Below are positions 9,384-50,281 of a stretch of DNA of 64,000 nt, piece by piece. The position numbers and the translations under genes were made by a program. The stretch is taken from positions 718,351 to 782,350 of the forward strand of contig JACPOV010000008.1 of the NCBI GenBank assembly GCA_016191325.1, given 5' to 3'. This DNA is from Candidatus Babelota bacterium (GTDB taxonomy: Bacteria; Babelota; Babeliae; Babelales; JACPOV01). Below the pieces are notes generated by a model. The model had not been told where the DNA came from, made no database searches, and saw only the letters and a program-made list of their open reading frames with translations. Within the stretch, counting starts at the first letter, position 1. Each line of letters begins with the position of its first letter.

Positions 9384-9413
9384 TTGACGAACGTTATCTA
9401 AAGGTGCTATAAA
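9384..9413 (+). promoter_or_regulatory. candidate sigma70-type promoter for the downstream OMP gene
   Basis: TTGACG (9384-9389), an 18-nt spacer, then TATAAA (9408-9413), ~30 nt upstream of the ATG at 9445. Confidence 0.3.
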
Positions 9414-9444
9414 GGAAAAAGAAGCTTTGATTGAAAGGATAGTG

Positions 9445-12359: not shown

Positions 12360-12890
12360 TTTTCTTAGTAAGTAATTTGGAATCGGCGGTATTTCTAATG
12401 CAAGCAGCTTTGGTGCGGCAAGAACTCGTTCATATTTAAAAAAATGTTTTGATTTTTCTTGGATTGTCAGCATATTCTTAGCAATTAACGAATATCCATA
12501 GAGTCGCCAATCTGTACGATTAACTTCAGATGTGAGTGCATTGGCTATAAGATCTAATGCTTCCAATGGCTTCTTGTGATACGTAAGTAAACTCATCGCT
12601 GCAAGGCGAAACGCACTGGTAAAATGCGGATCGAGTTTTTTCATAAGCATCATTCCATTTACAATTTCGTTTGCACCGCAGCGAGCAAAATCTTTTTGCA
12701 AAAACTGAAACCAATAAAAATCGGAAGCCATTAATCTCCAAGATCCTAAAAATTGGGCATATTCATAATGAGAGATTGAATGCCCGTTGCCCAATTTGGA
12801 TTCTTGCAATAAGACATTCAAAATAATCGAGAGTAGATAAACAACTACGATAAAAATGCAAACGAAATAATTTTCACGCCAAATCGTCAT
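12348..12890 (-). CDS. membrane-anchored helical-repeat (TPR-like) protein downstream of the pilin gene, hypothetical
   Basis: 180-aa ORF with an N-terminal TM (YFVCIFIVVVYLLSIILNVLL). Overlaps the pilin stop by 17 nt, suggesting co-translation. Confidence 0.55.
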   Translation of the reverse strand: MTIWRENYFVCIFIVVVYLLSIILNVLLQESKLGNGHSISHYEYAQFLGSWRLMASDFYWFQFLQKDFARCGANEIVNGMMLMKKLDPHFTSAFRLAAMSLLTYHKKPLEALDLIANALTSEVNRTDWRLYGYSLIAKNMLTIQEKSKHFFKYERVLAAPKLLALEIPPIPNYLLRKLEA

Positions 12891-13362
12891 GCGTAATTTT
12901 TATTTCATTGCGATGATCAACGGTGAGTCGATCGTCGGTACCATCCCCATCAATATCACCAATTGCTGCAGCTAGAAAAGTATTGGCATCAGCTTTGGTG
13001 TCGCCAAGGCTTGAACCACTCGCGCCCAATTTTCCAGTAAAACAACAATGACCTTCTTGGCCACTAAATCCATAGGTATAATAAAACCGTTCGTTTGCGC
13101 CGCCGCCTGAATATCCCTCCGGCTGCCATCCTGCGCCGTCTTTGCCAATAAGTTGCGTTGTATATTTTCCGTTTTCTGCCCAATACGCTTTTTCTGCTAA
13201 ATAAAGCGTTCCTAAATTCATATATGCTTCGGTCCGTTTTGCTTTTGCTAAAAATCTAAAAAAGCTTGGCATAGAAACCATCGATAGAAACGCGACGATC
13301 GCCACAACGATCATTAATTCAATTAAAGTAAATCCGCGACACTTTTGCGTGATCTTTTTCAT
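12874..13362 (-). CDS. type IV pilin / pseudopilin with class III signal peptide
   Basis: MKKITQKCRGFTLIELMIVVAIVAFLSM carries the prepilin cleavage/N-methylation motif (G|FTLIE). Strong SD (GGGGGGAGAA). The C-terminus has the Asp-rich loop GDIDGDGTDD. Confidence 0.9.
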   Translation of the reverse strand: MKKITQKCRGFTLIELMIVVAIVAFLSMVSMPSFFRFLAKAKRTEAYMNLGTLYLAEKAYWAENGKYTTQLIGKDGAGWQPEGYSGGGANERFYYTYGFSGQEGHCCFTGKLGASGSSLGDTKADANTFLAAAIGDIDGDGTDDRLTVDHRNEIKITHDDLA

Positions 13363-20422: not shown

Positions 20423-21715
20423 TTAATCGAGCTCTTCAAGTTTAGATTGAGCACCAAATAATTTTGCTTCTGTTTTAAGAAGCTCGCTAATGCGGCGTGC
20501 ATTATCATAGCCATAGGGGGCAAACGCATGCTCTTCTTTATCAGCAAATTCACGAAATTTCTCAGCATATTGCACACGCGTCATCTGATCTCTCTTTTTA
20601 TCATCATTCTCTACAGCTTTCTTTAAACAAAATTGCATACATTTATAGATTAGAGGAATACTTATGATACCAGCGAGACCTATTACTTTAAAAACATTAT
20701 CTTCATCCTTTTTATTACTCAATTCGATATAACCCCTCGCAAACAAAGCACTTGGGATCCCTGCTGCAATACCAGTTAACAACAAGGCCTCTGGTTGGGA
20801 AACCAGTCTAAGATCGGTCTGGGCACTCTTGGCATTCTTGCTATTAAGAGATGCAAAATGCTGGTCTGCTTGATATTCCTGGTGCCTCCATAAAGACAAT
20901 CTATCTGCTTCTGGTATGGTTTTTCCTCCTATTTCCCACGTATACTGAAATGAATGTAACTTTTTTGCATGCCCTAATTCATGCATCAATAATGCTATTT
21001 GCTTATCTGTGTTCATTAGTGCACAACGCGGAGTAAAAACAAGACGTACCCCATCTTTTCTTGAACGGAAATCACAGTAGCCGATCCAAGAACTATTGGG
21101 AAAGTCATTGCTAACCTCAACATAAATTTTCATTTTTTTAAGATCATCATCGCAAGAGACAATTTCTTCTAATTTCTCTCGCAATGGTTTAAAAAGCGAT
21201 ATTTTAACTAATTTTGAATAAATAATCCCAGGTTCTTTACAAAATTTTTCTTTTTTTTCCTGGCAATATTTAGAAACCGCAGAATATAATTCGCCAGGGG
21301 CATTAAATTTATCACCAAAATCTTTTTGCTGTATTTCATCAAAAATTCGCTCAGTGCGCTTATCCAAAAATTTGTGCACAAACTTCGTCACCGTCTGATT
21401 ATTTGCATGAATAGCGCGAACAAAACTTTCTTGAGGATTTACTTTCTGGGTGACGCGCTCTCGATAAGAGCGAAAATAACTATCGATCGTAGTTGGGTTA
21501 TCTTTTTGCCAAACTGTGTTCAATAATGCTTTTTCATTAAATTTTTCTGCAATACCAATTCCCAAAGCTGCTGGCTGAGGCGTGTTAGCTTGCCTAGAAA
21601 TTGTTTGTTTATTGGCGAATTTTTGCAAACCTTGAAAATCGGCATACGATGCCGAGGCAAAATTGTATAAAAAAAGGCAAATAATTATTTTCATTTTATT
21701 CATAAAATATCCCAT
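20423..21715 (-). CDS. secreted HExxH zinc metallopeptidase-like protein (M48-like) with C-terminal TM segments
   Basis: Signal peptide (MKIIICLFLYNFASASYA), LLMHELGHAKK followed by EYQADQHF (HExxH ... ExxAD pattern), and two hydrophobic helices near the C-terminus. Start ambiguous among 21715, 21703 and 21694. Confidence 0.6.
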   Translation of the reverse strand: MGYFMNKMKIIICLFLYNFASASYADFQGLQKFANKQTISRQANTPQPAALGIGIAEKFNEKALLNTVWQKDNPTTIDSYFRSYRERVTQKVNPQESFVRAIHANNQTVTKFVHKFLDKRTERIFDEIQQKDFGDKFNAPGELYSAVSKYCQEKKEKFCKEPGIIYSKLVKISLFKPLREKLEEIVSCDDDLKKMKIYVEVSNDFPNSSWIGYCDFRSRKDGVRLVFTPRCALMNTDKQIALLMHELGHAKKLHSFQYTWEIGGKTIPEADRLSLWRHQEYQADQHFASLNSKNAKSAQTDLRLVSQPEALLLTGIAAGIPSALFARGYIELSNKKDEDNVFKVIGLAGIISIPLIYKCMQFCLKKAVENDDKKRDQMTRVQYAEKFREFADKEEHAFAPYGYDNARRISELLKTEAKLFGAQSKLEELD

Positions 21716-21820
21716 AATTGATTACTTTATTATAGTATCAAATTTGATATTTTTTTCAAGTTGAATAAAATTGGCCAAATTTATAGCCATTTTAACAGAT
21801 ATACATCAGTTTGAATTGAC

Positions 21821-21875
21821 GTGATGGTTTTTTGGTGATTCGGGAAGAGCGTATTTAACAAAAGATTTTTATTAA
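21821..21875 (+). pseudogene. relic of the last ~18 codons of a cysteine-synthase-family gene (diverged direct repeat of 20367-20420)
   Basis: GTGATGGTTTTTTGGTGATTCGGGAAGAGCGTATTTAACAAAAGATTTTTATTAA encodes VMVF(+1 T)GDSGRAYLTKDFY*. The intact gene end is VMIFGDSGRAYLTKDFY*. There are 7 substitutions, 6 of them synonymous third positions, plus one extra T. Confidence 0.75.
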
Positions 21876-22456
21876 TAATACCCGAGACATTTCGTAAAGT
21901 TCCTCACGATGCCCGCGCTAACAGCACCAGTTACAACCAAAATAGTAAGATGGGCAATATAAGCTCTCGAAAAAGGATCATATACGCGCGGCCATTCGCT
22001 CAAACGGTGAAGCTGTGTCCCTTGTTTTTCGTACAAGGCATATGACCTAATATCCGCTTGCCTGATAAGGTCTTTTTTGCCTAAAATGAACGATTCTCCA
22101 ATGTGCTCAACGTCTTCTTTTTTTCCAAAATGGTGAGCAAAAGAATTCGCTTCATAATAAGAATGATATTTTAATAAATTTCTGGGGTTACGCGTCTCAA
22201 CGCGAACAACTTTTTTTCTTTCCTCAAATTGATTTATCGGAATCTGCGAAAATGTTTCTTGATCATCAAATTCATCCGATTTAATAAAAATGCGCACTTC
22301 GCCTGTTTGAGCCGGTTCGTCTTTTGGATCCATTTCAATGCGTGCAGGATGAGCATACTTTTGCTCAACACTCAATACCCAGCGCGGTAAGCAAGCATGT
22401 GTAATAAGTGTTAGATTAAAAAGTATCACCGAAAAAATAGTTGTTATAAAATTCAT
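21872..22456 (-). CDS. secreted/tail-anchored hypothetical protein, tandem paralog A
   Basis: Signal-like N-terminus and C-terminal TM (HLTILVVTGAVSAGIV). IRSYALYEKQGTQLHRL matches ISSYAVFKRSGTHLKKI of the next gene. Confidence 0.6.
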   Translation of the reverse strand: MNFITTIFSVILFNLTLITHACLPRWVLSVEQKYAHPARIEMDPKDEPAQTGEVRIFIKSDEFDDQETFSQIPINQFEERKKVVRVETRNPRNLLKYHSYYEANSFAHHFGKKEDVEHIGESFILGKKDLIRQADIRSYALYEKQGTQLHRLSEWPRVYDPFSRAYIAHLTILVVTGAVSAGIVRNFTKCLGYY

Positions 22457-22968
22457 TTACAGCTTCCGAATACATAAGAATCAACACAACATAAAGCACA
22501 TGCTACAACTATTTGCGCTCCAAAAAAATGATACGGCTTACTATCTATCAATGGGTGATAACTATTTTGTGAATTATTAGACTCCAATTTTCTTTCATAA
22601 ATTTTTTTTAAATGAGTTCCACTTCTCTTGAACACTGCATAAGAAGAGATATTCAACTGATAATTTGCATCAAGACGCTCCGATGGTTTCTTTTTGTACC
22701 ATTGATCAAAAAAAGGCACCGAGTCATAAAAGGATACTAATTTTTTACCATTCTTATCCAAACAAATGGTTTGAACGATTTTCTCACTTCTTCTGTTAGA
22801 TCGTCCGCTGATATCAATGATTTCACCCATCGAAATGTTCCGAATCCGGTCTTGATATACTATGTCTTTGTAATTCTTACTAAATAAAATCTTAATTTTG
22901 TTGGGGTGCTCTTCTGCATTGATGGAAAAAACCATAAGTAATTGCAAAATAAAAAAACGTTTGATCAT
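22453..22968 (-). CDS. secreted/tail-anchored hypothetical protein, tandem paralog B
   Basis: Signal peptide MIKRFFILQLLMVFSINA and a C-terminal hydrophobic Cys-rich helix. 4-nt overlap with the downstream paralog. Confidence 0.6.
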   Translation of the reverse strand: MIKRFFILQLLMVFSINAEEHPNKIKILFSKNYKDIVYQDRIRNISMGEIIDISGRSNRRSEKIVQTICLDKNGKKLVSFYDSVPFFDQWYKKKPSERLDANYQLNISSYAVFKRSGTHLKKIYERKLESNNSQNSYHPLIDSKPYHFFGAQIVVACALCCVDSYVFGSCK

Positions 22969-23074
22969 AGAGCCTGCAAGTAAAAATTAAATTTTTCTCG
23001 CACTAAAGATACCAATTTTTTGCAAATAATAAAGGCTTGCGCAAAACCGACAACCTTTAAAAATAATTATTCTT

Positions 23075-25447
23075 TTAAAAAGGTTTTTTTCTTTTTTGGT
23101 ATTCGCGCCAGATAATTGTAGCGCCGATGAGAGCAATAAAGAATATTAGCATGAAGATTCCGCTCGTTAAGGAATGCGAAGCTGCATAATTCTTTTTTTC
23201 TTCAGGTTGCATTCGTTTGCCAGAAACATTCCCTTTCGTTCCTTCTTCCATTGGCCCTTGATAGGGGTCGATTTCTCGATAGGGAGAGAACGGAGCAGTT
23301 GGCATGCCTTCTTTTGCATAACCAAATGGCTGAGCTAAAGGTTTTTGTTCTTGCGTTTGGCTCGCTTTTTCTGATGGCGTAGCGGGAATTGAATAACCTC
23401 CGTAAGGAAGTTGATTTCGCTCGCCCGTATCAAAGAAACCGGGTATGGACGGATAAGCTGCGGAATTGCGAGTTACGGATGAATTTCTATAACGATCTCC
23501 GGGCGCAAACGATTGATTGAACTCTCTTATTGGCAAAGTTCCTGTAGACTCGTATGGGGCATTGTCAGTTGATCTCGCGCGATTGCTTGATGAAGGTATT
23601 ATTCTTGATCTGCCCGGCTGTATTCGTGACCAAGGAGTAAATTCAATCTTGTCGTACGCTTTTTTAATTTCTGGTAATTTACCCTCGAACTGTTTTTTTT
23701 CAGAACTAGGCAATTTTGAATCTTTTTCAATACGCAGCATTTCATCTTTCTTATCAACTATTTTTTCCGGAACTGCTGATATTTCTGGAGAAAGAATTAT
23801 CTGCTCTTTTTCGCTTATTGCTTTCTTTGCATCTTTTTGACTATCAGCTTTTTTAATTTTCTTGAAAGCATTTTCATCATCTCCTGCAACATCACCAATT
23901 CTTGGGCGCTTAATTGTCGGTGGTAAATTCCCGCCTGCTACAATCGCTTGTTGCAACTGAAGAGTTCCTGGTTTTAGTTCTATCAAAGCTTGTTGGCGTG
24001 CAACATCTTGAAAAACCCCTTCTTTGAGAGCGGCAGATTCTTTAATGATACTCTCTTGCTCTTCGGGCGGTAAATTTTCGCCTGAGACGATCGCTTGTTG
24101 CAGCTCAAGAGTTCCTGGTTTTAATTCTATCAAAGCCTTCTCGCGCGCAATTTCTTGAGTGGCCCCTTCTTTTAGAGCCGCGGATTCTTTAACAATACTA
24201 TTTTGCTCTTCTTTGTTTTCTTGCGATTTTGGCATGCTAATTTCTAACTCTTTGCCTATTTGCTCAATCGATTGCGCAGGAACTCGAGGTTCCACTTTTT
24301 CTACTGCCTTGCTAACTGGCTCTTGAATATTCTTTTCTATAATTGTTTCCGGTTCCGGCGCGATTTGAACGATTGGTTCAGCTACGAACGGAATAGGGGG
24401 AATGATTTGTGCAGGAGAAACTACCGGTATAATGTAGTTTGATTGGCCAAAGTTCACCGGTTCGGTAAGCGCACGATATTTTTGCTCACTAATTTGCGGG
24501 CGCTGTTGTTCACGCTCTGCATTAATCGCAAGAGCATTAAGTCGCTCAACCGTTGTGCCAAATAAATTTCTTAGTATTGCGTCATCCGGAAGTTGAATAA
24601 CATCTTGCCTTGAGTTGTAACCGCTTAAACGGGCCATATCAACTACTAATTTTTTAATCAATTGCTGTACCTGAGGAATTGCTAGCCCTTTCAATGAGCC
24701 AATGCGCATTGCAATTTGAGCGACAGATTGAGATCCATATCCTTCAAACGGAATCATTTCTTTTGATTCTTCTTGCGGCAATTGCTCTAAAACGTGCTGC
24801 GCAATCGTATCAAAACCCGCAAGTATCAATTCAATTTTCCTTTGTTCTATTTGCGGCCGGGTAAGTGCTCGTTGCTCAAAACGTTGCTGAGCAATCTCTT
24901 GCCCTTCTATTTCGCTTAGTGCAGGAACAAATTCTTCTTGCTCCAGCTCCGGTTCTATAAGAGAAAGCTCTTGGTACATCGGATATTCAATTGCCGGATA
25001 TTCTTTTTTTACCGACTCAGTTTTTTTAATCGTTGCCTGTTTTTCAGCTTGGCTTTTTATTTTTTGTGCCATTTGAGCGGGAGTTAATATTGTTCTTTGA
25101 GAAGGCGCTGGCTCAATCTCTTGCTCTACGGGTTTTTCTAGAGGTGCAGAATAGACAGGAAAAAGGGGTTTAGTAAATTGGAATGACTTAATTGTTTGGG
25201 TAAATCTTTGAAGATAGGTAGGCTGAGCTGATTTTTCTGGCTCAATCGCTGGAGTTATGCTTGCTCCTGAAAATGCAGGCGTCACAGTTTTCGTTTGCAC
25301 CGGCCTAATTGTAGGGGATTGCTTCGTTTTGCGTATTGGCTGTGCAGGCTTTTTAAACTGTATACGGCTAGAAGCAGTACCAAATATTCCTGCAAAAGCT
25401 TCTACGCTTAAAAGTGATAATAAACTAAGGAATAATAATTTTTTCAT
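23075..25447 (-). CDS. large secreted, P/E/Q-rich low-complexity protein with C-terminal membrane anchor
   Basis: Start moved to the ATG at 25447 (AGAGG upstream). Signal peptide MKKLLFLSLLSLLSVEAFA, long disorder-like sequence, a 49-aa tandem repeat, and C-terminal TM SGIFMLIFFIALIGATIIW followed by REYQKRKKPF. Confidence 0.7.
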   Translation of the reverse strand: MKKLLFLSLLSLLSVEAFAGIFGTASSRIQFKKPAQPIRKTKQSPTIRPVQTKTVTPAFSGASITPAIEPEKSAQPTYLQRFTQTIKSFQFTKPLFPVYSAPLEKPVEQEIEPAPSQRTILTPAQMAQKIKSQAEKQATIKKTESVKKEYPAIEYPMYQELSLIEPELEQEEFVPALSEIEGQEIAQQRFEQRALTRPQIEQRKIELILAGFDTIAQHVLEQLPQEESKEMIPFEGYGSQSVAQIAMRIGSLKGLAIPQVQQLIKKLVVDMARLSGYNSRQDVIQLPDDAILRNLFGTTVERLNALAINAEREQQRPQISEQKYRALTEPVNFGQSNYIIPVVSPAQIIPPIPFVAEPIVQIAPEPETIIEKNIQEPVSKAVEKVEPRVPAQSIEQIGKELEISMPKSQENKEEQNSIVKESAALKEGATQEIAREKALIELKPGTLELQQAIVSGENLPPEEQESIIKESAALKEGVFQDVARQQALIELKPGTLQLQQAIVAGGNLPPTIKRPRIGDVAGDDENAFKKIKKADSQKDAKKAISEKEQIILSPEISAVPEKIVDKKDEMLRIEKDSKLPSSEKKQFEGKLPEIKKAYDKIEFTPWSRIQPGRSRIIPSSSNRARSTDNAPYESTGTLPIREFNQSFAPGDRYRNSSVTRNSAAYPSIPGFFDTGERNQLPYGGYSIPATPSEKASQTQEQKPLAQPFGYAKEGMPTAPFSPYREIDPYQGPMEEGTKGNVSGKRMQPEEKKNYAASHSLTSGIFMLIFFIALIGATIIWREYQKRKKPF
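23918..24211 (-). repeat. 2 x 147-bp in-frame tandem repeat inside the 790-aa gene
   Basis: GGTAAATT anchors at 23922 and 24069 give a 147-nt period. Encoded units are ESIIKESAALKEGVFQDVARQQALIELKPGTLQLQQAIVAGGNLPP and NSIVKESAALKEGATQEIAREKALIELKPGTLELQQAIVSGENLPP. Confidence 0.8.
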
Positions 25448-25536
25448 CTTTTCCAACCTCTTTTAATTCAACTATTAGTATAACTGATTTTGCAAAATTT
25501 TCAATCAGTAATTAATTAAGGTGCGGAAAAGTGATA

Positions 25537-25562
25537 TTTTTTTATAGCGCCCTATAAAAAAA
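25537..25562. terminator. AT-rich palindromic hairpin 5 nt downstream of the 25568 gene
   Basis: TTTTTTTATAG CGCC CTATAAAAAAA: a perfect inverted repeat with a 4-nt centre. Confidence 0.45.
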
Positions 25563-25567
25563 GCTAA

Positions 25568-25918
25568 TTACTCGCCTATTTGATTAGAGCAAGAAAACAA
25601 AGAGAAAAGGCCTAAAGAATGAGTTCTATTTATTTGCTGCGAGCGTACTTTGCTTATTTCTTGCGGTTTCGGTTCAAAATGGGATTTCTTTCTGCGGTTT
25701 CGCAAACCGGTTTCTTCATTCTCTTCTGTTTTTTCCATAATCATAGCTTGCGGCTGCTCAGAATCATATGAACGGCAGGATGGAAGAACTTGTTCATTTT
25801 GAGGTTGTTCTATAACTTTTTTAACCTCAACTTTAACAACGATTGGCTTTGGTAGCGGCAAATATTGCGTTGCTTCACTATTTAAAAATATTAATACAGC
25901 GACATACTGCAATTTCAT
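25568..25918 (-). CDS. small secreted protein, hypothetical
   Basis: Start moved to the ATG at 25918 (AAGGAAGAG SD 4-5 nt upstream). Signal-like MKLQYVAVLIFLNSEA, then basic/Glu-rich sequence. Confidence 0.5.
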   Translation of the reverse strand: MKLQYVAVLIFLNSEATQYLPLPKPIVVKVEVKKVIEQPQNEQVLPSCRSYDSEQPQAMIMEKTEENEETGLRNRRKKSHFEPKPQEISKVRSQQINRTHSLGLFSLFSCSNQIGE

Positions 25919-26124
25919 AACTCTTCCTTTGTTCCAAGAGTAGAAAATATGAGCTTCGTTAACTATCCTACCTGTTTTACGGCTGAGCGCAAACCAAGAA
26001 AAACATTCACCAAATAATTTTTGGTTCAAAAAATTAGAAAAAACGTTCTCATTTTAGATTATTTTTAGCATTCTCATCTATTTTCTATACACTAAAGTGA
26101 AATTTTATTTTAGGGAGACAACTA

Positions 26125-27405
26125 ATGCACGGCCTCAAAAAACATATCCTCTCAATAATAGTAGTGACGAAATTTTACTGTATATCGGCAATGGAACCGC
26201 AACCTGCACCAGAAATTGTTTCCTATGCTCAAGAATTCGCGCAGGATGAGATTCGCCCAGAGCTTCTTGAGCAATTGCTTGCTACGTGCCCCAAACTGAA
26301 GCAATTGGTTTTCCGTTTACAAAATCCTCTCCGCTATGGCAGAACAATCCCTACTAAACTTTTGCTCGTTGGCCCTCCTGGAGTTGGCAAAACTACTATT
26401 GCAAAAGGAATTGCTTCACTCATTAATCGCCCCTATATATTTCTTCGAGCATCGTTACTCACAAATGAATATAAAAATTCTGGGCCGCAAAATTTAGCGC
26501 GCGAAATAATACCTATTTTACAAAGCGGGCAACCTTATGTAATCATCGTGGATGAACTGCATGCGCTCACTGAAAATTATAAAAAAGACCACAATGCAGA
26601 TCCAGGAACTGCAGAAGCATTATGGTCGATTCTCGATGAATGCGCCAAAAATCCACAAGTTCTTTTTATTGGTACCACCAATGATGCTGTAAAACTTCCA
26701 GAACCGCTCAAAACAAGATTTGCAAACGGGATCATTGAAATACCACTGCCAAATCTTGAACAGCGAACTAATATTATTAAATATTATTTACACAACATCT
26801 CTTACACATTCGACAGATCATATTTTACAACTCTGGCAAAACAAACGAATCAACTTTCGGGTCGCAATCTTGAGCAACTAGTTTCTGATGCGATTACGTA
26901 CGCTTTAGATCGAGAAGAAATTCCGATGATTAGAAAAAAAGATTTTGAGCGCGCTTTGAAGGATATGAATGAAAATCAAAGTTCATTGGCATTGTTGGGC
27001 TGGGAAAAACATAAGCAATTTTTAAAAGATAACGCCACAACTATCGCCACGATTATTGGTATAGGTGTAAGCCTTGTTGGGCTCGCAATGCAATACTGGT
27101 CGATGCAGCGACAAATTTCCCTTCAGTTAGTTGCGCAAAACGCGCAAATAGACCAAAATAAAAAATTTCTCGATCATCAAGTAAAAGTGCAAAATGAGCA
27201 ATTTACTATCGAACAGGGAAACAAAGAAAAAAAAGCAAACCAGTCTGCGTTCATACAAAAAACTGGTGCCGGCGCGGGTATAGTTACAGGAGCATTTACA
27301 TTAGCTGCATCATTCCCACCCCTTTGGCCAGTAGCTTACGTAATTGGTGGTAGTGGAGCATTGATGGCTGCTGATGCATTTGATCAGAATTGGAGCAAGA
27401 TGTGA
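26125..27405 (+). CDS. membrane-anchored classical-clade AAA+ ATPase
   Basis: N-terminal hydrophobic anchor (ILSIIVVTKFYCISA), Walker A LLLVGPPGVGKTT, Walker B YVIIVDELH, sensor-1 region FIGTTN, PEPLKTRF. C-terminal TM TIATIIGIGVSLVGLAMQYW and Gly-rich helix GAGAGIVTGAFTLAASF. GGGAGA SD. Confidence 0.8.
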   Translation: MHGLKKHILSIIVVTKFYCISAMEPQPAPEIVSYAQEFAQDEIRPELLEQLLATCPKLKQLVFRLQNPLRYGRTIPTKLLLVGPPGVGKTTIAKGIASLINRPYIFLRASLLTNEYKNSGPQNLAREIIPILQSGQPYVIIVDELHALTENYKKDHNADPGTAEALWSILDECAKNPQVLFIGTTNDAVKLPEPLKTRFANGIIEIPLPNLEQRTNIIKYYLHNISYTFDRSYFTTLAKQTNQLSGRNLEQLVSDAITYALDREEIPMIRKKDFERALKDMNENQSSLALLGWEKHKQFLKDNATTIATIIGIGVSLVGLAMQYWSMQRQISLQLVAQNAQIDQNKKFLDHQVKVQNEQFTIEQGNKEKKANQSAFIQKTGAGAGIVTGAFTLAASFPPLWPVAYVIGGSGALMAADAFDQNWSKM

Positions 27406-30368
27406 TTTTTTCCAAAGCACGAAAAAAACTCTCTAAGAAAATCTTATTCGCTGCATTCGTTTCATTCAGCTTTTCAACATTGCAATCTATGGCAATACCG
27501 TGGCAAACCATTGCACCGACTCTTGCAAATTTAAGCTACGGATGCGGAGCTTTAGTTAATAAACTCTTAAACACACAGCGCCATAGCATTCCATCTCCAG
27601 CTCAACAAATACCAATTACTCGCGCGCCTCTAATTTTAAGCGTTAGGCAATCCTCGATCGCCCCAATTAGATCATTATGCATAAAATCGCCAATCGAAAC
27701 CTACAGCAGAGCGCTTCATTGTAAATTGCAACAGAATTTACCTACAGCGCTTCTCAAAAACCCCGCTTCGACCGCAACGCCAAAACTACGATTGGGTCAC
27801 CTGCCCTCAGCTCGTGGCAAAAGCGAAATTTATAAAACGAAAACTGCATCATCGCTCCTAAAATTGCCTCAAGTCAGGCCAGATTTGCAGTATGTAAAAC
27901 CTAAAAGCGCTTGGGAATCTTTTATCGATAAATTAACAATAACAGTCGTTCCACATGATATTGATTATCGCACATATGGCGCAGTCTCCGATCTGCATCG
28001 AGCTACCGTCGAACAGCAATCCCTCATCAACCAATACCAGCAAAATGGCATGTTCCATGTGCTAGAACAGAACGTTGCAAAATTTCAATCAATCTTATTG
28101 GATCTCTCGCGATCAGATCCTCAAGGCGTTATCGCGCGCAATAAATTTTCTGAATTGCAAGCACCTTTGCCACTCGCCCAGCATTATCTTAATGATTTTA
28201 AAACATGCATAAAAATGTTTGCTTTTGATAAAGCAGATACCATAAAACAAAACCTTTCGAAAGTTGATTCATTTTATATAGCAGCTCATTGTCAATCATT
28301 TATACAACGAAGCTTCGGCGCTCAAGCAGCAGCCGATTTTGTAAAAATGGGATGCGAACAAAAAATTCCTGGGTACCTTGAACTCAGCGGGCAAGTAAAA
28401 TATGGAAATATTTTTTCTCGAGCGCGTCGATGGTTTGCAGGATGTAAAACTGGATTCCGTTCAAATGAATTTAATCCGCATCATATTCTTGAAAATAGCT
28501 TTAATCAAAAGATAACGCACGTACGAACATTATGCGAAAACCAAAAATTCCATTTAGCTCATGCTTATATTCAGCAATCGTCAGGGGAAAGCAAGCAAAG
28601 TTTGCTGGGTGTTTATGGGGAATATTTTAAACAAAGCTATAATCAACTTGGTATCGAGCGCTGTTATGAAAATGATCCTTTTTTTGCGCAAATTTCATCC
28701 CAACTTAAATATAGTAGCGTACCCAGCGCAGGCCTCAATGATGTTTTTAAATCACGCCACGATATGTTCAATGCCATTAAGCAAACATGCGCTATCCCTA
28801 ACAACGCTGACGCGTTCAGCAATTCTTTAATGTGGCATCTAGTTGATCAATGCGGAAATAACGCAACTCCAAAGCAGATGGTGAGCGATTTAGCTGTTCT
28901 GTGCAAAGATAGCGCAGCCAAAACAATTTCTGGAGCGTATCATCATTTTTTTGATGGCAACGGGATCTTTAAGCTCTTAAATTATGATAAATCTAACTTT
29001 GCGCATCTTTCTTTTCATGAATCGATTCACCATGAACGCAATACTCACACACGAATCTTCTTAAATGATCTTATACAGATTCCGTGTACAACCAAGCAAC
29101 AGTTAGAGGCTTTTTCAAGCGCCCTAAATCACCTAAACCAATCATGCAAAAATCCTTCCCTAGCTACGCAACATATGACGTTCGCGCAAGACATTGCCAA
29201 TGCGCTCTCAAATCCTGATTACGACCAAAAAATTATTTCCTGCGGCGATTTTAGTAAATATGATATGCGCCTTCTTAAACTTGGATCCGAAATAATTACC
29301 GCTAAGAATAATACGAATGTTCAGCTTGCTGACATGCAAGAGCTGAATGCTGCATTGGCGCAACTAAACGATGCTGGAATCGCACGCTTGAATGGAGATT
29401 ATTATCTTTCAGAACACCTAACCAACAAAACCTTAGGATCGCTCGATATTGAATCAAGCAGTTTTTGGCAGCAAGAAAAAACGAGCTTTATAAAACCGAT
29501 ATCCGCTGATTTAAAAACATCATTTTTCAATATTCAATCTCCCAAAACTCAAGAAGCTGCCCCTTCTAAAAATAGTTTTGCAAACGGTTTTGCGGCCGCC
29601 GTGGGAGCTCGAGCATTGCAGCAGGCTTTTTCTGGAAATTCTTTCGCGCCAGCACCTTCAGCTAATTATTCACAGACGCAAACAGATGCCGCTAGTGCGT
29701 GCCCGCAATGTGCAAACGATGCAGACGCAATTCATGAGTATTTTGACTATTTAAATCAAGGCGGCCAACCTGTTGCCATTTCTGGCGGACAGGCTGATGC
29801 TGCTCAAAAGGCAAAAGAAGACGATTGCAATGAAGCGCCGACAAAATTATCACTTTTAGAACAAATAGAATTAGCAAGAAAAGCAAATGATTATTTCCGG
29901 GAACAAATTGCGAAATATGAAGCTGAAATCGTTGAGGCGATAAAGAAAAAGCTCAAAGAAAATAATTTAAATTATGAACCAACGATTCACGTTAAAGATA
30001 TTAATATGAAACACATCATGTTTACAGAATCGAGAGGCAAAAACCCAGTCGGATTACATTCAAAACGCTGGAATCCTGAACGAATAGTTACGGCAAGCGT
30101 CCGCCCTTGCAAATTCAATACAAGCCATGGGAAAGTTCAGCTCAATTGCATCACTAAACCTTCAACCTTTTTCCCCGATAGCTGGAATGAATTCATGATT
30201 GTTGATAAAATTTTTGAAGCATTAAAGAATATTATTAACGTAAATACAATAAGCAGTAAATTAATAATAAAAGGAATTACGCAAGAACAAATCTATATTG
30301 AATTACATCTTGAAAGTGGAGGTTTAATTTCAACGGCCTATCCATCATTTAAGGATTTATGCATTTAG
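27390..30368 (+). CDS. large secreted protein with C-terminal EndoU-like RNase (polymorphic-toxin type) domain
   Basis: Starts at TTG 27390 or GTG 27402, the latter overlapping the AAA stop as GTGA. Signal peptide KKILFAAFVSFSFSTLQSMA. The last ~128 aa (nt 29982-30365) carry KHIMFTE, VGLHSKRW, KPSTFFPDSWNEFMIVDKIFEALKN and LISTAYP. These parallel the EndoU His/His/Lys motifs and the bacterial EndoU hallmarks. Confidence 0.65.
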   Translation: MEQDVIFSKARKKLSKKILFAAFVSFSFSTLQSMAIPWQTIAPTLANLSYGCGALVNKLLNTQRHSIPSPAQQIPITRAPLILSVRQSSIAPIRSLCIKSPIETYSRALHCKLQQNLPTALLKNPASTATPKLRLGHLPSARGKSEIYKTKTASSLLKLPQVRPDLQYVKPKSAWESFIDKLTITVVPHDIDYRTYGAVSDLHRATVEQQSLINQYQQNGMFHVLEQNVAKFQSILLDLSRSDPQGVIARNKFSELQAPLPLAQHYLNDFKTCIKMFAFDKADTIKQNLSKVDSFYIAAHCQSFIQRSFGAQAAADFVKMGCEQKIPGYLELSGQVKYGNIFSRARRWFAGCKTGFRSNEFNPHHILENSFNQKITHVRTLCENQKFHLAHAYIQQSSGESKQSLLGVYGEYFKQSYNQLGIERCYENDPFFAQISSQLKYSSVPSAGLNDVFKSRHDMFNAIKQTCAIPNNADAFSNSLMWHLVDQCGNNATPKQMVSDLAVLCKDSAAKTISGAYHHFFDGNGIFKLLNYDKSNFAHLSFHESIHHERNTHTRIFLNDLIQIPCTTKQQLEAFSSALNHLNQSCKNPSLATQHMTFAQDIANALSNPDYDQKIISCGDFSKYDMRLLKLGSEIITAKNNTNVQLADMQELNAALAQLNDAGIARLNGDYYLSEHLTNKTLGSLDIESSSFWQQEKTSFIKPISADLKTSFFNIQSPKTQEAAPSKNSFANGFAAAVGARALQQAFSGNSFAPAPSANYSQTQTDAASACPQCANDADAIHEYFDYLNQGGQPVAISGGQADAAQKAKEDDCNEAPTKLSLLEQIELARKANDYFREQIAKYEAEIVEAIKKKLKENNLNYEPTIHVKDINMKHIMFTESRGKNPVGLHSKRWNPERIVTASVRPCKFNTSHGKVQLNCITKPSTFFPDSWNEFMIVDKIFEALKNIINVNTISSKLIIKGITQEQIYIELHLESGGLISTAYPSFKDLCI

Positions 30369-30757
30369 TAAAAATAAAACTTACCCCTTATTATCATATT
30401 GCATACGCGACGTCTGAGCCATTAAAGCTTCTGGGCTTTTTCTTAGAAGACTTTGGATCTGAAATTGGAATTGAGATTTTACGCTCAATTGTCATTGATA
30501 AATTACAAGACTGTACGTCGGGCAATAAAACATCACTATATACATTAAAAAATGGAAATTTGTGTATTACTATATTATTTCCAGACAAGAAAGATCCTGT
30601 ACGGTTAGAAATAACACCTGAAACGTTGCTTCAGGTTACAAAATTATATTTGGAAGCAGAAAAAAAACGACCAGCCGAAATTATTATTAAATTGGATCAT
30701 TCAATGGAAAATCCAACGATAGAAACTATACTATATTGTCCTCTTAATAAGGCCTAA
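30359..30757 (+). CDS. putative cognate immunity protein (132 aa, cytoplasmic)
   Basis: The ATG overlaps the toxin ORF end by 10 nt. No signal peptide. Small acidic protein. The assignment rests on position only. Confidence 0.4.
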   Translation: MHLVKIKLTPYYHIAYATSEPLKLLGFFLEDFGSEIGIEILRSIVIDKLQDCTSGNKTSLYTLKNGNLCITILFPDKKDPVRLEITPETLLQVTKLYLEAEKKRPAEIIIKLDHSMENPTIETILYCPLNKA

Positions 30758-30760
30758 AAT

Positions 30761-31201
30761 ATGAAATATTACGCACTGCTCAGTATTCTGTTATTTTTTT
30801 CCGCAGATGAGGCACGCTGTTCTAATGATTCAAATAAAGCACATTCTAACGATACCGTTTCTTTTCTAACTTCCAAAAATTGCTGCGCTGCTCTTTTAGG
30901 ATCGATGGCATTGGCATACTGCTATTACCTTTATAAATCAATACTATCACCAAAGCCACAAAAAAAATTAGCTCAAGAAACCGCAGATTCGCGTTTATAC
31001 AAGAAAAAGATCGAGGAGCAACAGCTGAAGCGCTTAAAAATAATTTTGCCAATGCTTTGCGTAATGTGGATTTTAAACTCGATTATTTTTAGTTACAATC
31101 CTTATTACAATCCAATCTATATTCCCCCAACCCATCTATATCAATATAGATACCCATATCAGTATTCATACTCATATCCATATATTTGGACATTCTACTG
31201 A
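30761..31201 (+). CDS. small membrane protein with Tyr/Pro-rich C-terminal tail, hypothetical
   Basis: Signal-like N-terminus and two TM segments. The tail is YNPYYNPIYIPPTHLYQYRYPYQYSYSYPYIWTFY. Confidence 0.5.
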   Translation: MKYYALLSILLFFSADEARCSNDSNKAHSNDTVSFLTSKNCCAALLGSMALAYCYYLYKSILSPKPQKKLAQETADSRLYKKKIEEQQLKRLKIILPMLCVMWILNSIIFSYNPYYNPIYIPPTHLYQYRYPYQYSYSYPYIWTFY

Positions 31202-31320
31202 GGCGCTAAGAATTTCATCTCGAAGTTATTTTATTTAAGGAATTTTGAGAAAGCAAACAGCTCTTTTTTTTACACTTTTTGATCGCTCTAACCCGTAATC
31301 ATAAATTCAAGGAAATTATT

Positions 31321-31776
31321 ATGAAATTAAAATCTCTAGGACTATTTTTCATCATGTTGATCTTTTTTAAAGGCATGAATGCGGAGCGTGTGTATTTCTA
31401 TCATGATTTCCATGAGCCGGTACGCGCAAGCGTAACAAAATCGATTGTTGCTAGCATTGGAGGAATTCTATTGCTCTCATTGGGATATAAACTGGAACAG
31501 AAACTCGAACAAACTGCCCGCGCGACTATTCCAGATTATAATAGACTCTTGGCTGAGCTTAAAAACAATGTCGAGTATATGAATAAAAAATACGGATTCT
31601 GGACACCAAGTCTCACCCGCTACTACGTTCCTGATATGCCCCAGTTTTATGAGATTGCAGCAAGCTCGCCAGAAACTGCCGCAGCGCTGAAAAAGCTTTA
31701 CTACCAAAGCGGGTGCTCATATGTTGCAGGCAGCGTTTTATTAATATTCGGGATATTTGGGTTATTAGGTGACTAA
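31321..31776 (+). CDS. small membrane protein, hypothetical
   Basis: Start moved to the ATG at 31321 (AAGGA SD). Signal peptide MKLKSLGLFFIMLIFFKGMNA, an internal TM and a C-terminal TM (VAGSVLLIFGIFGLLG). Confidence 0.5.
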   Translation: MKLKSLGLFFIMLIFFKGMNAERVYFYHDFHEPVRASVTKSIVASIGGILLLSLGYKLEQKLEQTARATIPDYNRLLAELKNNVEYMNKKYGFWTPSLTRYYVPDMPQFYEIAASSPETAAALKKLYYQSGCSYVAGSVLLIFGIFGLLGD

Positions 31777-31790
31777 ATATTAGTCAGGGC

Positions 31791-31830
31791 AAAAAAAACC
31801 CCTATCCAGACAGAACGTCGTGGACAGGGG
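31791..31830 (-). terminator. rho-independent terminator for the minus-strand ferredoxin/ligase/glycosyltransferase operon
   Basis: CCCCTATCCA (31799-31808) pairs with TGGACAGGGG (31821-31830) at 9/10. It is preceded on the plus strand by A8, which gives a T8 run after the hairpin on the minus strand. Confidence 0.65.
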
Positions 31831-31984
31831 AAATGGAGGTTATCTAATTAAATCGAATAATAAATTATTCTGTGTTGATGATACATCAAGCACACACAAA
31901 AATCAAATTTTATTCCGATCGCGCTTGCAACTGCATCATCAAGAAAAAACATATCAAAATATTATTTCAAAATGCAAATATTTC

Positions 31985-33100
31985 CTATTTTTTCCCAGAA
32001 AGTCTTTCATAAAGCTCCCGGTAGGAATCTGCCATTCGGTCAAATCTAAATTCATTCGCTATTGTAGCCATCCCCTCTTTCCCGAGAGCGGCCGCAAATG
32101 GGCTATCGGTCATTATAGCGCATAAATTATCATAAAAAATAGGGCCGTTATTTGCGGGCAATAAAAGCCCATTTTTTTTATGCTGAATGACATCGTGCTC
32201 AAGCTCGGCATTGGTAACCACACAGGGAATTCCGATACTCATCGCCTCTAAAAGTGCCATTGAAATCCCCTCTTTTACAGAAGATTGAACGAAGCAATCA
32301 AAAATAGGATAATAGCCGATCGCATTCTTCCCAACGATAAAAATAACCGCGTCTTTTATATCCAATTTCTCCGCCAGTGAACGCAAATAGGCCTCCTGGG
32401 GCCCGCCGCCAACCAAAACTAAGCGGGTTGAGGGATAATTCTTATGAATTTTTGCAAAAACTTCGATTAAGAATGAGTAATTTTTAAGTGGCACGAAACG
32501 GCCAACCGAGCCAAACACAAAATTATCTTCAGTAAGGCCTAAACTCTCTCTAGTTATAAGATTTTTTTCACTCTTGCTGCGTATTCGATCGGCATCAATG
32601 CCATTTTTAATAATGTGAACGCGTTGCGCTGGCATAAAGCGATAATCGTTCATGGTGCGGCAAATCCCCTCTGAAACAGCGATAATCTCATCTGCCAACC
32701 AAAGGGAAAGCGAATCGATCGCATTCCGCACGAAACCGTTTTGATCGTGATTATTATGAAGCGCACAAATGACGGGAATACCTTTCAGTTTCCCTACTAT
32801 TCGGCTGGCCACATTTGCCGCCCAAAGTGATGCGTGAATACAACTCGGTTTTTCTGAATCGATTGCTCGATAAAGCGCAATCCAAAAAAACGGATCGAAT
32901 AGACAAAAATAGCCTTTAACGTGATAGGTTTTTATGCCAAGTTCATTAATGCGCGCGACAAAAGGGCCTTCATGAAAATAAACCACTGCTTGCTGAATGT
33001 TTTTTTCTTGAAGCCGCTCAGTCAGATCATAAAGCAAACTCTCTGCGCCGCCCATTTTAAGGCTTGAAATGATATGAATTACTTTAACTGCGCTCCCCAT
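31985..33100 (-). CDS. glycosyltransferase, GT4-like
   Basis: KVIHIISSLKMGGAESLLYDL N-terminus and EGISMALLEAMSIGIPCV C-terminal motif. 371 aa. Confidence 0.8.
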   Translation of the reverse strand: MGSAVKVIHIISSLKMGGAESLLYDLTERLQEKNIQQAVVYFHEGPFVARINELGIKTYHVKGYFCLFDPFFWIALYRAIDSEKPSCIHASLWAANVASRIVGKLKGIPVICALHNNHDQNGFVRNAIDSLSLWLADEIIAVSEGICRTMNDYRFMPAQRVHIIKNGIDADRIRSKSEKNLITRESLGLTEDNFVFGSVGRFVPLKNYSFLIEVFAKIHKNYPSTRLVLVGGGPQEAYLRSLAEKLDIKDAVIFIVGKNAIGYYPIFDCFVQSSVKEGISMALLEAMSIGIPCVVTNAELEHDVIQHKKNGLLLPANNGPIFYDNLCAIMTDSPFAAALGKEGMATIANEFRFDRMADSYRELYERLSGKK

Positions 33101-37171: not shown

Positions 37172-38821
37172 TTACTTTTTTTCTAGCAATGCCTTCACTT
37201 CTGCTGGTAACTTTTTATATTCATCTGCGAATTCTTTATTAAGCGCATTGACGCCTGCTTCTTTTGCAATTAAGAATATAATGAGCTGCTTGAGCGAAAG
37301 CGATTTTAATTTGAGCTCATCAGATTCCCAGATAATAACCGATCCTTTGATACCACCTACGCCCTGCGCTGATGCAAGTTTTCCATTTGAGTTGAATACC
37401 ACGTTTTGCACCCCCTTCGCCTCTAGAGTTTGAAGTTTTTTGCCGGTAAGCGCATCCCAAATTGTAATTGAGTCTTGGCCGCCAACGGCTAGTTTCGTGC
37501 CATGTTCATTGAATGCGACTGAAGTTACCAGCCTCTTTTCGTTATCGTTACTTTGCAATTTGTTTCCTGTAGCAAGATCCCATACTATAAAGCCATCGTT
37601 TCCTCCCGAAGCAAGCTTTGTACCATCTGGACTAAAAGCTACAGAGTTTATGATATGTGAATGACCAGTTAATGTTTTAAGCTTATTTCCAGTTGCAAGA
37701 TCCCATATAATTACCGAAAAATCTTGCCCGCCTGAGGCTACCATTTTTCCATCCGGGCTGAATTTTACCGAGTGAGCAGAAGCTGTGTGGCCTTGCAGGG
37801 TCTGAATTTGCTTTTCTTGCATAATATCCCATATAATGACGTTGGGGCCAAACGCCTCAGCCAAGGCCAACTTTAAGCTATTGGGGCTGAATGCAATAGA
37901 TCTTGTATTAACAGGTATCGCTTTAAGTTGTTTACCGCTAGGAAAATCAAATAGAGAAAGGTCTCGGGTGATTGATCCTGCAACAAGTTTTTTGCCATCC
38001 GGACTAAACAAAACGTTTTCAGGGCGAGTCTCAACTTGGATTAATGCAAAATCTTTTTTTAGAACAAGGTCCCAAACTATGATTGTAGCTTTATTTGCCC
38101 TACGAGACCCATACGCGATTTTTCCACCATCTGGACTGAATGCTACCGAGTCAATTTCACTGAGTTCAGTTAATGATTCTGATTGACTGAATGGCAAGCC
38201 CAAAGCGCTTATAAGATTGTTCGTTACCATTTTTTGAAGATCTTGTGGAAGCAAAGCATTTATTTGGTTGAAGATTCCCTGTCTTGCATTAAGCTCCGCC
38301 AAAGCGTTCGAGGATTGCAATCGTTTTACTAGAGCGTTAACTGATGCTTTTAATAGTTTTTCAATGTCTAAATAATTGGCAGCTTGAGCTACGTATGCAA
38401 TTTCTGTGAAAGTAAAATTTTCTAATGATTTTTCTATTAACTTTGCATCATCAAGTACGCCACTGTTTGCCAATGAAAAAATAGCTTGAACTGCCCCAAG
38501 CGAGAGTTTAGGAAGGGTTATTACACTCCCTGCTTGCAGTACTGCCTGATCATCCTCCGCCATATTTTTCAACGTGACAGAGCTTGCTACTACTTTTTTT
38601 AGTAATTGATATGCCTCAGAATTTATAGCAGGCACGGTTACTTCAATATTACCAGTATCGTCTTGCACAATAAACGGAAATTGGGGGGCTGATGTCTGTT
38701 GTATCCCTGTCGCTGGCAGATATTCCTCTTCCTCCATACCGCTCGGGGGACAACTGGCGTAAGCAAGATTCGTGCAAATGAATAATATGGATATCGCTCT
38801 GAATGTATTAATTATTTTCAT
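37172..38821 (-). CDS. secreted Skp1-like (BTB/POZ fold) domain fused to a seven-blade WD40 propeller
   Basis: Start moved to the ATG at 38821 (GAGGT SD). Signal peptide MKIINTFRAISILFICTNLAYA. SVTLKNMAEDD, VITLPKLSLGAVQAIF and AQAANYLDIEKLLKASVNALVKRL parallel Skp1 SVTIKTMLED, PVPLPNVNAAILKKVI and [24 protein letters not shown]. Seven repeats of the (V/I)xFSPDGxK(L/V)ASGG ... IWD type follow. Confidence 0.7.
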   Translation of the reverse strand: MKIINTFRAISILFICTNLAYASCPPSGMEEEEYLPATGIQQTSAPQFPFIVQDDTGNIEVTVPAINSEAYQLLKKVVASSVTLKNMAEDDQAVLQAGSVITLPKLSLGAVQAIFSLANSGVLDDAKLIEKSLENFTFTEIAYVAQAANYLDIEKLLKASVNALVKRLQSSNALAELNARQGIFNQINALLPQDLQKMVTNNLISALGLPFSQSESLTELSEIDSVAFSPDGGKIAYGSRRANKATIIVWDLVLKKDFALIQVETRPENVLFSPDGKKLVAGSITRDLSLFDFPSGKQLKAIPVNTRSIAFSPNSLKLALAEAFGPNVIIWDIMQEKQIQTLQGHTASAHSVKFSPDGKMVASGGQDFSVIIWDLATGNKLKTLTGHSHIINSVAFSPDGTKLASGGNDGFIVWDLATGNKLQSNDNEKRLVTSVAFNEHGTKLAVGGQDSITIWDALTGKKLQTLEAKGVQNVVFNSNGKLASAQGVGGIKGSVIIWESDELKLKSLSLKQLIIFLIAKEAGVNALNKEFADEYKKLPAEVKALLEKK

Positions 38822-39191
38822 ATTTACCTCAGCCACCTTGCGAGAATTGAATTGGTTTACTGTATTTATCATAGAGTATATATTAAATCTTATTTGAAAA
38901 TAAATAAAAAATTTGGGCTTATAATTAATTATTTTTACATTAAGAGTAAAAATATATTTTGAGAATATTATTTTATAAAATATGCCTGAATAGGCTGTTG
39001 AATATATGCTGGCTCACTAACTACTGTTTTTTGGGCTTGAGCTAGGAAACTTGTCTTACCTAAGCGCAACAACTATGCGCCCTGCCCACCCAATAACCTT
39101 CAAAAAATTTATTTTTTTCTAATTCCTTTTTTTTGTAAACCGGCAGCTTCTCAGGAATTTCGATGCTTACAAAAAAGTCGACCACCCATTA

Positions 39192-50255: not shown

Positions 50256-50281
50256 ACCTTTTTCTTAACAGCACAACGACC

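Follow-up and report, generated by a model that had tools for sequence, protein, structure and literature searches.

Does the 992-amino-acid (aa) protein encoded at 27390..30368 (+) of this stretch of DNA belong to a toxin-immunity system, and if it does, against whom is it directed? The stretch, here called the window, comprises 64,000 nucleotides (nt) of contig JACPOV010000008.1 from a Candidatus Babelota bacterium, and positions are given within it unless another locus is named. A reading made from the sequence alone had proposed that the protein is secreted and ends in an EndoU-like RNase toxin domain, and that a small overlapping open reading frame (ORF) encodes its immunity protein. We consider, with a probability of roughly 0.6, that this is a toxin-immunity locus of the polymorphic-toxin type, in which a Sec-exported RNase is paired with a coupled cytoplasmic immunity protein and the likeliest targets are rival bacteria. 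The general kind of system is already known; what is new is the carrier region, the immunity family, the AAA ATPase partner with its signal peptide, and the phylum.

All named relatives of the toxin, AAA or immunity genes belong to Candidatus Dependentiae/Babeliales, and from these relatives of three linked genes the source bacterium is probably one of the Dependentiae. The Dependentiae (TM6), hardly any of which have been cultured, are a widespread phylum whose members parasitise protists from within the cell. Their effector export and their interactions with competitors are essentially uncharted, and the locus described here bears on both. We found no article in the literature that joins Dependentiae with polymorphic toxins or immunity proteins, and the sole mention of EndoU that we found for the phylum is as a cytoplasmic digestive enzyme (PMC6561590).

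The EndoU-type tip and its overlapping partner gene

Both ORFs exist as had been claimed, and they overlap by 10 nt. The larger one, counted from TTG 27390, contains every motif that the sequence-only reading had recorded: KHIMFTE at aa 874-880 (nt 30009-30029), VGLHSKRW at aa 887-894 (nt 30048-30071), ITKPSTFFPDSWNEFMIVDKIFEALKN at aa 921-947 (nt 30150-30230) and LISTAYPSF at aa 979-987 (nt 30324-30350). The predicted EndoU-type RNase toxin domain spans aa 861-988 (29970..30353, +), as judged from a profile match, conserved columns and a structural model. The last 128 aa matched PF14436 (EndoU_bacteria) at 27.8 bits (cut-off 25.3; E 3.7e-6), which bears out the proposed C-terminal EndoU-type domain. 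When 1.84 billion representatives were searched exhaustively with phmmer, 72 relatives were returned, of which approximately 40 cover aa ~820-990. Those relatives of the EndoU domain that we tested, at 30-57% identity, scored 28-58 bits against PF14436 over profile positions 4-128. An NCBIfam scan of the toxin and of the 132-aa downstream ORF gave nothing.

The resemblance to the EndoU catalytic pattern was borne out by an alignment of 28 sequences, in which the His, His, Lys-Ser-Thr and TAYP columns are kept. His875, Gly888, His890, Phe928, Pro929 and Trp932 are invariant, Ser925 and Pro985 are at least 90% conserved, and the query toxin retains every conserved column; Lys923, Thr926 and Thr982 are present in it as well. 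Reference EndoU enzymes pair each of two catalytic histidines with a Ser or Thr, as in the H162/T278 and H178/S229 pairs of XendoU (PMC3482391). The His/His and Ser/Thr columns of the query follow the EndoU pattern of XendoU. We predict that the catalytic residues are His875, His890, Lys923, Ser925/Thr926 and Thr982. Judged by its profile match and its conserved columns, the toxin belongs to the EndoU_bacteria domain family.

An AlphaFold2 (AF2) model of aa 815-992 had a predicted local distance difference test score (pLDDT) of 92.1 and a predicted template modelling score (pTM) of 0.88. The model consists of a long leading helix and then two units, each made of a helix and a β-meander of 4-5 strands. 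A duplicated helix plus β-meander unit is also how the EndoU fold has been described (PMC3482391). When the model was compared with the PDB using Foldseek there were zero matches at E<=1e-3, and the sole coherent superposition was on 7me0_A, the NendoU of SARS-CoV-2 Nsp15 (E 0.18, probability 0.82, query TM-score (TMq) 0.43, root-mean-square deviation 4.6, 126 columns); BFVD returned nothing. Comparison of the C-terminal domain with solved EndoU structures by phmmer and profile hmmsearch (E<=1 and E<=10) gave only noise. We regard the structural support for an EndoU fold as only suggestive.

The leading helix of the model (model residues 8-43) is a pre-toxin helix at aa 822-857 (29853..29960, +). 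This helix accompanies the EndoU cassette onto unrelated N-termini: homology to the query begins at residues 816-828 in relatives P0009, P0010, P0011, P0016 and P0017, and the cassette sits on unrelated N-termini in P0011 and P0017.

The predicted cognate immunity gene, at 30359..30757 (+), encodes a cytoplasmic protein of 132 aa with neither a signal peptide nor a hydrophobic or transmembrane (TM) segment. Its proposed role gained support from relatives, in that a family of homologous ORFs lies directly 3' of the EndoU clade in seven loci, whatever the N-terminal architecture of the toxin. Homologues follow an EndoU tip in the window, in loci L002 and L018, in L003 (three copies) and in L005, L013 and L014 (two copies each); L013, L014 and L018 are independent loci that were not used to build the immunity hidden Markov model. 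Identity within the family is 35-45% (BLASTP E 1e-17 to 1e-29), and the L002 copy has 41% identity (E 2e-30). The members share the motifs M[HY]LLKI, LLGxFLEDFG and EIIIKLD. Linkage of the immunity gene tracks the toxin tip rather than the carrier: P0011, in which EndoU is placed on an unrelated N-terminus, is still followed by two copies. Across seven cassettes the identities of toxin tips and immunity proteins gave a Spearman coefficient of 0.58, and the immunity protein is the faster-diverging of the two. A Pfam scan of all seven members of the family found no Imm family at E<=1, leaving Imm-SUKH, Imm-SuFu and Imm28 unmatched, and a PDB search with the family found no relative. On these sequence comparisons, the 132-aa ORF is a member of an undescribed family of putative EndoU immunity proteins.

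The ATG of the immunity gene lies within the final codons of the toxin gene (...TTA TGC ATT TAG). The toxin tail is conserved as (L/I/K)CI(Y/P), its codons xxA-TGC/T-ATx hold the immunity start ATG-CAT/TAT, and the start is embedded in this way in several loci. This arrangement points to translational coupling of the immunity gene. The '...CI(Y/P)' tail was also considered as a lipidation or CaaX-like signal; we rejected this, as the codons are explained by the overlapping immunity start.

Immunity paralogues stand in tandem in L003, L005, L013 and L014. In L003 there is in addition an orphan, a 5'-truncated EndoU fragment (9224-9586) that is without the first His motif and is followed by its own immunity gene, and a third immunity gene is present too. 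Orphan fragments of the central module described below were found in L014 (1241-1435) and L018 (9872-11209). The orphan fragments 3' of immunity genes resemble the recombination substrates of contact-dependent growth inhibition (CDI), Rhs and Maf loci.

A constant carrier region with exchangeable tips and an AAA ATPase partner

The sequence-only reading had found no domain that it recognised in the ~860-aa N-terminal region. This stands for Pfam and NCBIfam, neither of which gave a match there at E<=1, but the region does contain a conserved all-α region common to ~30 proteins. The absence of a trafficking signature of the type V, VI or VII secretion systems (T5SS, T6SS, T7SS) held as well: no such domain, nor an Rhs domain, was detected in the first ~860 aa at E<=1. 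The constant region spans aa 190-720 (27957..29549, +) and consists of an N-subdomain at aa 190-353 and a central module at aa 356-657 (nt 28455-29360). Its AF2 model, built with 28 homologues, is all-α, with 28 helices in two subdomains (pLDDT 90.7, pTM 0.77), and a Foldseek comparison of this model with the PDB gave no fold match (best E 0.56, TM-score at most 0.18). Residues ~360-660 recur in ~30 proteins of 640-1530 aa, and the central module is duplicated in P0013 and P0064. The closest relative is P0004, with 34% identity and homology that extends to residues 195-669. A word search of 5.8 billion clusters with the full-length toxin found no close homologue besides itself.

The constant region is flanked on both sides by less conserved sequence. 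On its N-terminal side, aa 36-189 (27495..27956, +) form a variable Pro/Ser/Leu/Ala-rich stretch, defined by composition and the homology map, whose homologues are confined to the closest relative. On its C-terminal side, a low-complexity Ala/Ser/Gln/Gly-rich linker at aa 721-814 (29550..29831, +), of low pLDDT at the model end, separates it from the toxin cassette. Family members begin with a signal peptide, followed by a variable stretch (200-400 aa), the central module (~310 aa) and a second variable part (170-800 aa) with the toxin at its end. Seven central-module proteins are tipped with EndoU (P0004, P0022, P0025, P0049, P0051, P0052 and P0056), while others carry Ntox37 (P0024, 49.9 bits), Ntox35 (P0032, 27.8 bits) or one of several unrecognised types. 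P0013, whose tip is unrecognised, is followed by a CdiI_ImmP protein (PF24172, 113.5 bits).

A trafficking signal, a constant region with differing tips and an adjacent immunity gene, which are criteria for polymorphic toxins (Zhang/Aravind 2012), are all found here; orphan cassettes and immunity arrays were found in relatives only and not in the window. By its defining features, the locus qualifies as a predicted polymorphic toxin system.

Small ORFs were also seen 3' of other tips. In L006 (8580-9220) an ORF of 111 aa overlaps the Ntox37 gene and precedes a gene for a DUF6980 protein, and in L008 (8714-9103) an ORF of 129 aa comes after P0014. We consider these downstream ORFs candidate members of new immunity families, against Ntox37 in the first case and an unrecognised toxin domain in the second. 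In L002 (ENA ERZ25039529 contig_106150) many genes are split into short ORFs, among them those for PPDK, Phe-tRNA synthetase and the toxin, which suggests a frameshift-rich long-read assembly or pseudogenisation. It follows that the 208-aa P0002 is no stand-alone EndoU protein but rather the C-terminal end of a larger toxin.

The Sec-type signal peptide of the toxin (aa 1-35; 27390..27494, +) was read by eye as a basic n-region KARKKLSKK, an h-region ILFAAFVSFSFS and a c-region TLQSMA, and the signal-peptide end noted before, SFSTLQSMA, was confirmed at aa 27-35. By inspection every full-length member of the family has a signal peptide, which often ends directly before M[EDQ] and contains no lipobox Cys. 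The alternative start GTG 27402 has GGAG 6 nt 5' of it and overlaps the stop of the upstream gene (ATGTGA). We consider this GTG at least as good a candidate start as TTG 27390; the signal peptide is kept with either. The only public gene call of the toxin, P0001 (959 aa; Logan assembly of SRR12113392), begins at Met34 (nt 27489) and loses the signal peptide, and the annotated start of P0004 likewise skips an in-frame signal peptide upstream (L003 5914-6001). In the toxin family and the linked AAA genes a Met, often as M-E/D/Q, stands directly after the predicted signal-peptide cleavage site. The public starts of P0001 and P0004 at the post-cleavage Met could be a systematic annotation error. 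The post-cleavage Met could also allow dual initiation, giving exported and cytoplasmic isoforms.

The gene upstream of the toxin (26125..27405, +) encodes an AAA ATPase of 426 aa, a conserved accessory partner of the toxin family, and its 3' end overlaps the toxin start. The protein matched PF00004 at 80.7 bits, with Walker A at aa 83, and its closest solved relatives are p97/Cdc48 D2 domains (E 5e-29), of the classical clade. It has a signal-peptide-like N-terminus, MHGLKKHILSIIVVTKFYCISA|MEP, and hydrophobic segments at aa 304-322 and ~385-415. Of the loci of central-module toxins, eight were informative, and in every one of them a homologous AAA gene (23-59% identity) stood 0-3 genes away from the toxin. 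The eight loci comprise the window, L002, L003 (two copies), L006, L007 (two, in tandem), L008 (two), L018 (two, in tandem) and L020. L019, which is cut at a contig end, was left out of this count. P0011, an EndoU protein that has no central module, has no AAA neighbour. Nearly all of these AAA genes encode signal-peptide-like N-termini (window 26125..27405; L003 4305-5897 and 11130-12644; L006 3706-4815; L007 2292-5998; L008 9349-10593 and 12244-13212; L018 3575-5979; L020 4432-5592), and several of the linked ATPases have C-terminal hydrophobic segments. There is one AAA gene of this type in the 64-kb window, abutting the toxin gene, and a scan of a genome collection with the AAA alignment recovered only the known locus of Dependentiae UR.bin19.

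The link between the AAA and toxin genes is a robust observation, while its mechanism is speculation. An exported ATPase is unusual and would be sensible only with an extracytoplasmic supply of ATP, such as a periplasm or a surface in contact with host cytosol might offer. For intracellular phytoplasmas, AAA+/FtsH proteins that face outward have been put forward, from prediction only (PMC6981957). We hold it doubtful that the signal-peptide AAA ATPase and the all-α constant region form an undescribed export or delivery route for Dependentiae toxins or effectors. Were this so, a Cdc48-like unfoldase of an energy parasite surrounded by host ATP may be at work in the periplasm or at the cell surface. 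It may recognise the constant region there and may drive the toxin through the outer membrane or into its target, be that a rival bacterium, the cytosol of the host or one of the host's organelles.

Two further assignments were considered and rejected. The AAA gene was not accepted as part of an extracellular contractile injection system (eCIS) of the PVC kind, there being no phage-tail-like genes within ±10 kb. The ORFs of ~170-200 aa near the AAA genes of L006 and L008 were not accepted as a third component; the window ORFs 21872..22456 and 22453..22968 are dissimilar to them.

Proposed mechanism and competing explanations

We propose that the Sec signal peptide would take the 992-aa protein across the inner membrane. 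The constant all-α region would be the family carrier, and the long helix with EndoU would be an exchangeable warhead, a modularity drawn from comparison with relatives. The warhead is predicted to act as a metal-independent RNase on target RNA through His875/His890, Lys923, Ser925/Thr926 and Thr982; this step we infer from the conserved columns together with established facts on XendoU, MafB and CdiA-CT. The 132-aa protein, translationally coupled and unexported, would block the RNase in the producer cytoplasm and shield sister cells, as gene order and co-divergence suggest. The likeliest targets would be competing bacteria in the same host cell or niche, because relatives have immunity arrays, orphan toxin tips and a CdiI-type immunity gene. 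Overall the system would work as the Neisseria MafA/MafB/MafI system does, with different and unrelated parts.

For the crossing of the outer membrane, the candidates are nearby parts of type II secretion or type IV pili, outer-membrane vesicles and the linked AAA ATPase. A prepilin peptidase (Peptidase_A24) gene and a pseudopilin-like gene with an N_methyl motif lie at 11829..13362, 15 kb upstream of the locus, and in L008 a cluster of type II secretion system (T2SS) F, G and pseudopilin genes lies divergently beside the toxin locus. Such T2SS or pilus parts are a possible outer-membrane route for the toxin family. Signal peptides are encoded by 44% of coding sequences in Dependentiae, and outer-membrane vesicles have been seen in the phylum (PMC6561590). 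The sequence-only reading had offered a new delivery architecture as one of two possibilities. As to novelty this held in part: the constant region and the AAA partner are new, but delivery by a signal peptide only, with lineage-specific constant domains, is a recognised class ('T2SS' type; MafB-N, Microscilla-N, APD1/2) (PMC3482391, PMC4287609).

Several points weigh against a polymorphic toxin aimed at rival bacteria. RNase activity, toxicity, neutralisation and secretion are all things that we infer. The PF14436 alignment on the query is restricted to profile positions 63-128, the second half, and the full-length toxin scored 22 bits against this profile, under the cut-off of 25.3. The window itself has one immunity gene, no orphan cassette and one copy of each module. 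The signal peptides of the linked AAA ATPases would suit proteins that work beyond the bacterial cell, possibly in the host. Obligate intracellular life makes a host target plausible despite the immunity gene, and the immunity gene alone is compatible with such a target, since an RNase made for export must in any case be held in check in the cytoplasm (barnase/barstar logic).

It is plausible, though we think it less likely, that the locus encodes a host-directed effector: the toxin and the signal-peptide AAA ATPase would be released into the protist host, EndoU would cleave host RNA and thereby shut the host cell down or reprogramme it, and the small ORF would be no more than an inhibitor for self-protection, keeping the RNase inactive until export. 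As obligate intracellular parasites, Dependentiae export much of their proteome via Sec, including nucleases and ankyrin proteins (PMC6561590), the island that holds the locus codes for orphan proteins, secreted or membrane-bound, and endosymbionts are known to turn polymorphic-toxin domains on their hosts (PMC3482391). The signal-peptide-like N-termini of the linked AAA ATPases, with ATP present in the host cytosol, agree with this as well, as does the proposal of outward-facing AAA+/FtsH proteins in phytoplasmas (PMC6981957). However, by the criterion of Zhang et al. host-directed versions are recognised by having no immunity genes (PMC3482391), and here immunity genes are present, in tandem in relatives and with orphan tips, which is hard to explain without bacterial conflict; one family member, P0013, is even paired with a CDI-type immunity protein (PF24172). 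The same orphan cassettes and divergent immunity arrays are unexplained if EndoU is a secreted nuclease that degrades host RNA for nucleotide salvage, with the downstream ORF a barstar-like inhibitor. Dependentiae are without nucleotide biosynthesis, endoU is listed for host-polymer breakdown in Chromulinavorax, and nucleases are enriched among signal-peptide proteins (PMC6561590), yet a digestive enzyme has no need of a ~860-aa carrier, and scavenging leaves unexplained why Ntox35, Ntox37 and unrecognised domains are swapped onto that carrier. We judge this explanation improbable. Least credible of all is that the EndoU likeness belongs to a degenerate domain in a decayed remnant and that the overlapping ORF is a chance frame. 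The Pfam match of the query is marginal and partial, and the 5.8-billion-cluster search gave no close full-length homologue, but the catalytic columns are all intact, the ORF runs for 2.98 kb without a break, seven loci share the downstream ORF as a conserved protein (E down to 1e-30), and both AF2 models are highly confident.

If the locus is indeed a toxin-immunity system, reduced-genome parasites keep a toxin-immunity arms race with swappable warheads, which would mean that they truly compete, within a host cell or between host cells. The system would be built from private parts, a ~530-aa all-α carrier and a new EndoU immunity family, and the linkage of carrier and AAA gene would give a testable handle on the outer-membrane or delivery step. 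Gene callers would be systematically dropping the signal peptide in this toxin family. The immunity/RNase pair would also be a ready-made orthogonal toxin-antitoxin tool.

Genomic setting and comparison with known systems

The window is part of a diderm chromosome, with genes for BamA with POTRA domains, MurG, PBP1, ATP synthase subunit a and GluRS, and an RNase P RNA (class-A bacterial, 49917..50258, +, 252 bits). No tRNA genes were found in it, and promoter and terminator scans gave counts no different from shuffled sequence. The locus lies within an island, at ~20.4-31.8 kb, of ORFs without Pfam matches, most of which have signal peptides or TM segments. Upstream, at 20423..26029 (-), Pfam-less ORFs of 430, 194, 171, 793 and 153 aa mostly have signal peptides and/or a C-terminal TM segment; they and the toxin locus make up an island coding for secreted orphan proteins, with housekeeping genes on either side. 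The 793-aa protein has an internal repeat of ~45 aa (…IKESAALKEG…ALIELKPGTL(E/Q)LQQAIV…GENLPP…). Downstream of the immunity gene, two small ORFs of 146 and 165 aa (30761..31776, +) have a signal peptide and TM segments; they are unrelated to the immunity family, and their membership in the system is uncertain. The GC content over 30001..32000, which covers the toxin end, the immunity gene and these two membrane ORFs, is 0.349 versus ~0.40 elsewhere in the window, a drop that would fit a recently exchanged cassette. A 566-aa WD40/β-propeller protein and an RtcB RNA ligase are encoded 7-10 kb downstream, at 37172..38872 (-) and 39192..40700 (-). RtcB mends RNA ends with 2',3'-cyclic phosphates, the product type of EndoU-like RNases; its proximity to the toxin locus may be coincidental.

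Among known systems, several encode a classical Cdc48-like AAA ATPase beside a toxin, where it could handle cargo: Pvc15/Afp15 in eCIS, ClpV in T6SS and EccA in T7SS. In contrast to these, the window ATPase is single-domain, with a signal peptide and C-terminal hydrophobic segments, and no sheath, tube, baseplate, VgrG or ESX genes lie within ±10 kb of the locus. No PAAR, VgrG, Rhs/YD repeats or LXG/WXG domains were found in the toxin (E<=1), and no T6SS or ESX genes within ±10 kb. Nuclease colicins and S-type pyocins (e.g. the tRNases colicin D and E5) resemble the toxin in having an N-terminal stretch, a helical middle, a C-terminal RNase of the BECR fold and a small co-expressed immunity protein. 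Colicins have no signal peptide and are released by lysis proteins, whereas the window toxin has a signal peptide, shows no detectable colicin or pyocin domain and has no lysis gene present. Such RNases have been unified under the BECR fold (PMC3482391).

CdiA-CT EndoU/CdiI and Tox-EndoU systems likewise have a C-terminal EndoU warhead with two His residues, each with a Ser/Thr, an immunity gene 3' and orphan modules (PMC3482391). Unlike CDI systems, which use T5SS, the window toxin is without a two-partner secretion (TPS) domain, filamentous haemagglutinin (FHA) repeats or a VENN/PT motif, and there is no CdiB within ±10 kb. The toxin also has no sequence-level link to the solved CdiA-CT structures, and its immunity protein is not Imm-SUKH, Imm-SuFu or Imm28. 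The APD1/APD2 proteins of Amoebophilus asiaticus, a protist symbiont, and Microscilla-N proteins share a signal peptide, a lineage-private constant domain and polymorphic C-terminal effectors (PMC3482391). The APD proteins have a lipobox, lack immunity genes and are read as host-directed, while the window family has no lipobox Cys and has both immunity genes and orphan cassettes.

The Neisseria MafB/MafI system with MafA (PMC4287609) differs from the window system in its parts. No PF06255/DUF1020 match was found in the window toxin, in which PF14436 is the only Pfam match at E<=1. The carrier of the window family is much larger, ~530 aa and all-α, its accessory protein is a signal-peptide AAA ATPase where that of MafB is the MafA lipoprotein, its immunity family is unrelated, and its host lineage is an obligate intracellular phylum. 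In its design, however, the window system is like Maf: both have a Sec signal peptide, a lineage-restricted constant domain and a variable C-terminal toxin, with an immunity gene directly 3', orphan C-terminal cassettes that lack start codons, a conserved upstream accessory gene and an outer-membrane step that is unexplained. For MafB, signal-peptide-dependent secretion and the EndoU RNase activity of one variant have been shown experimentally (Jamet et al. 2015, PMC4287609).

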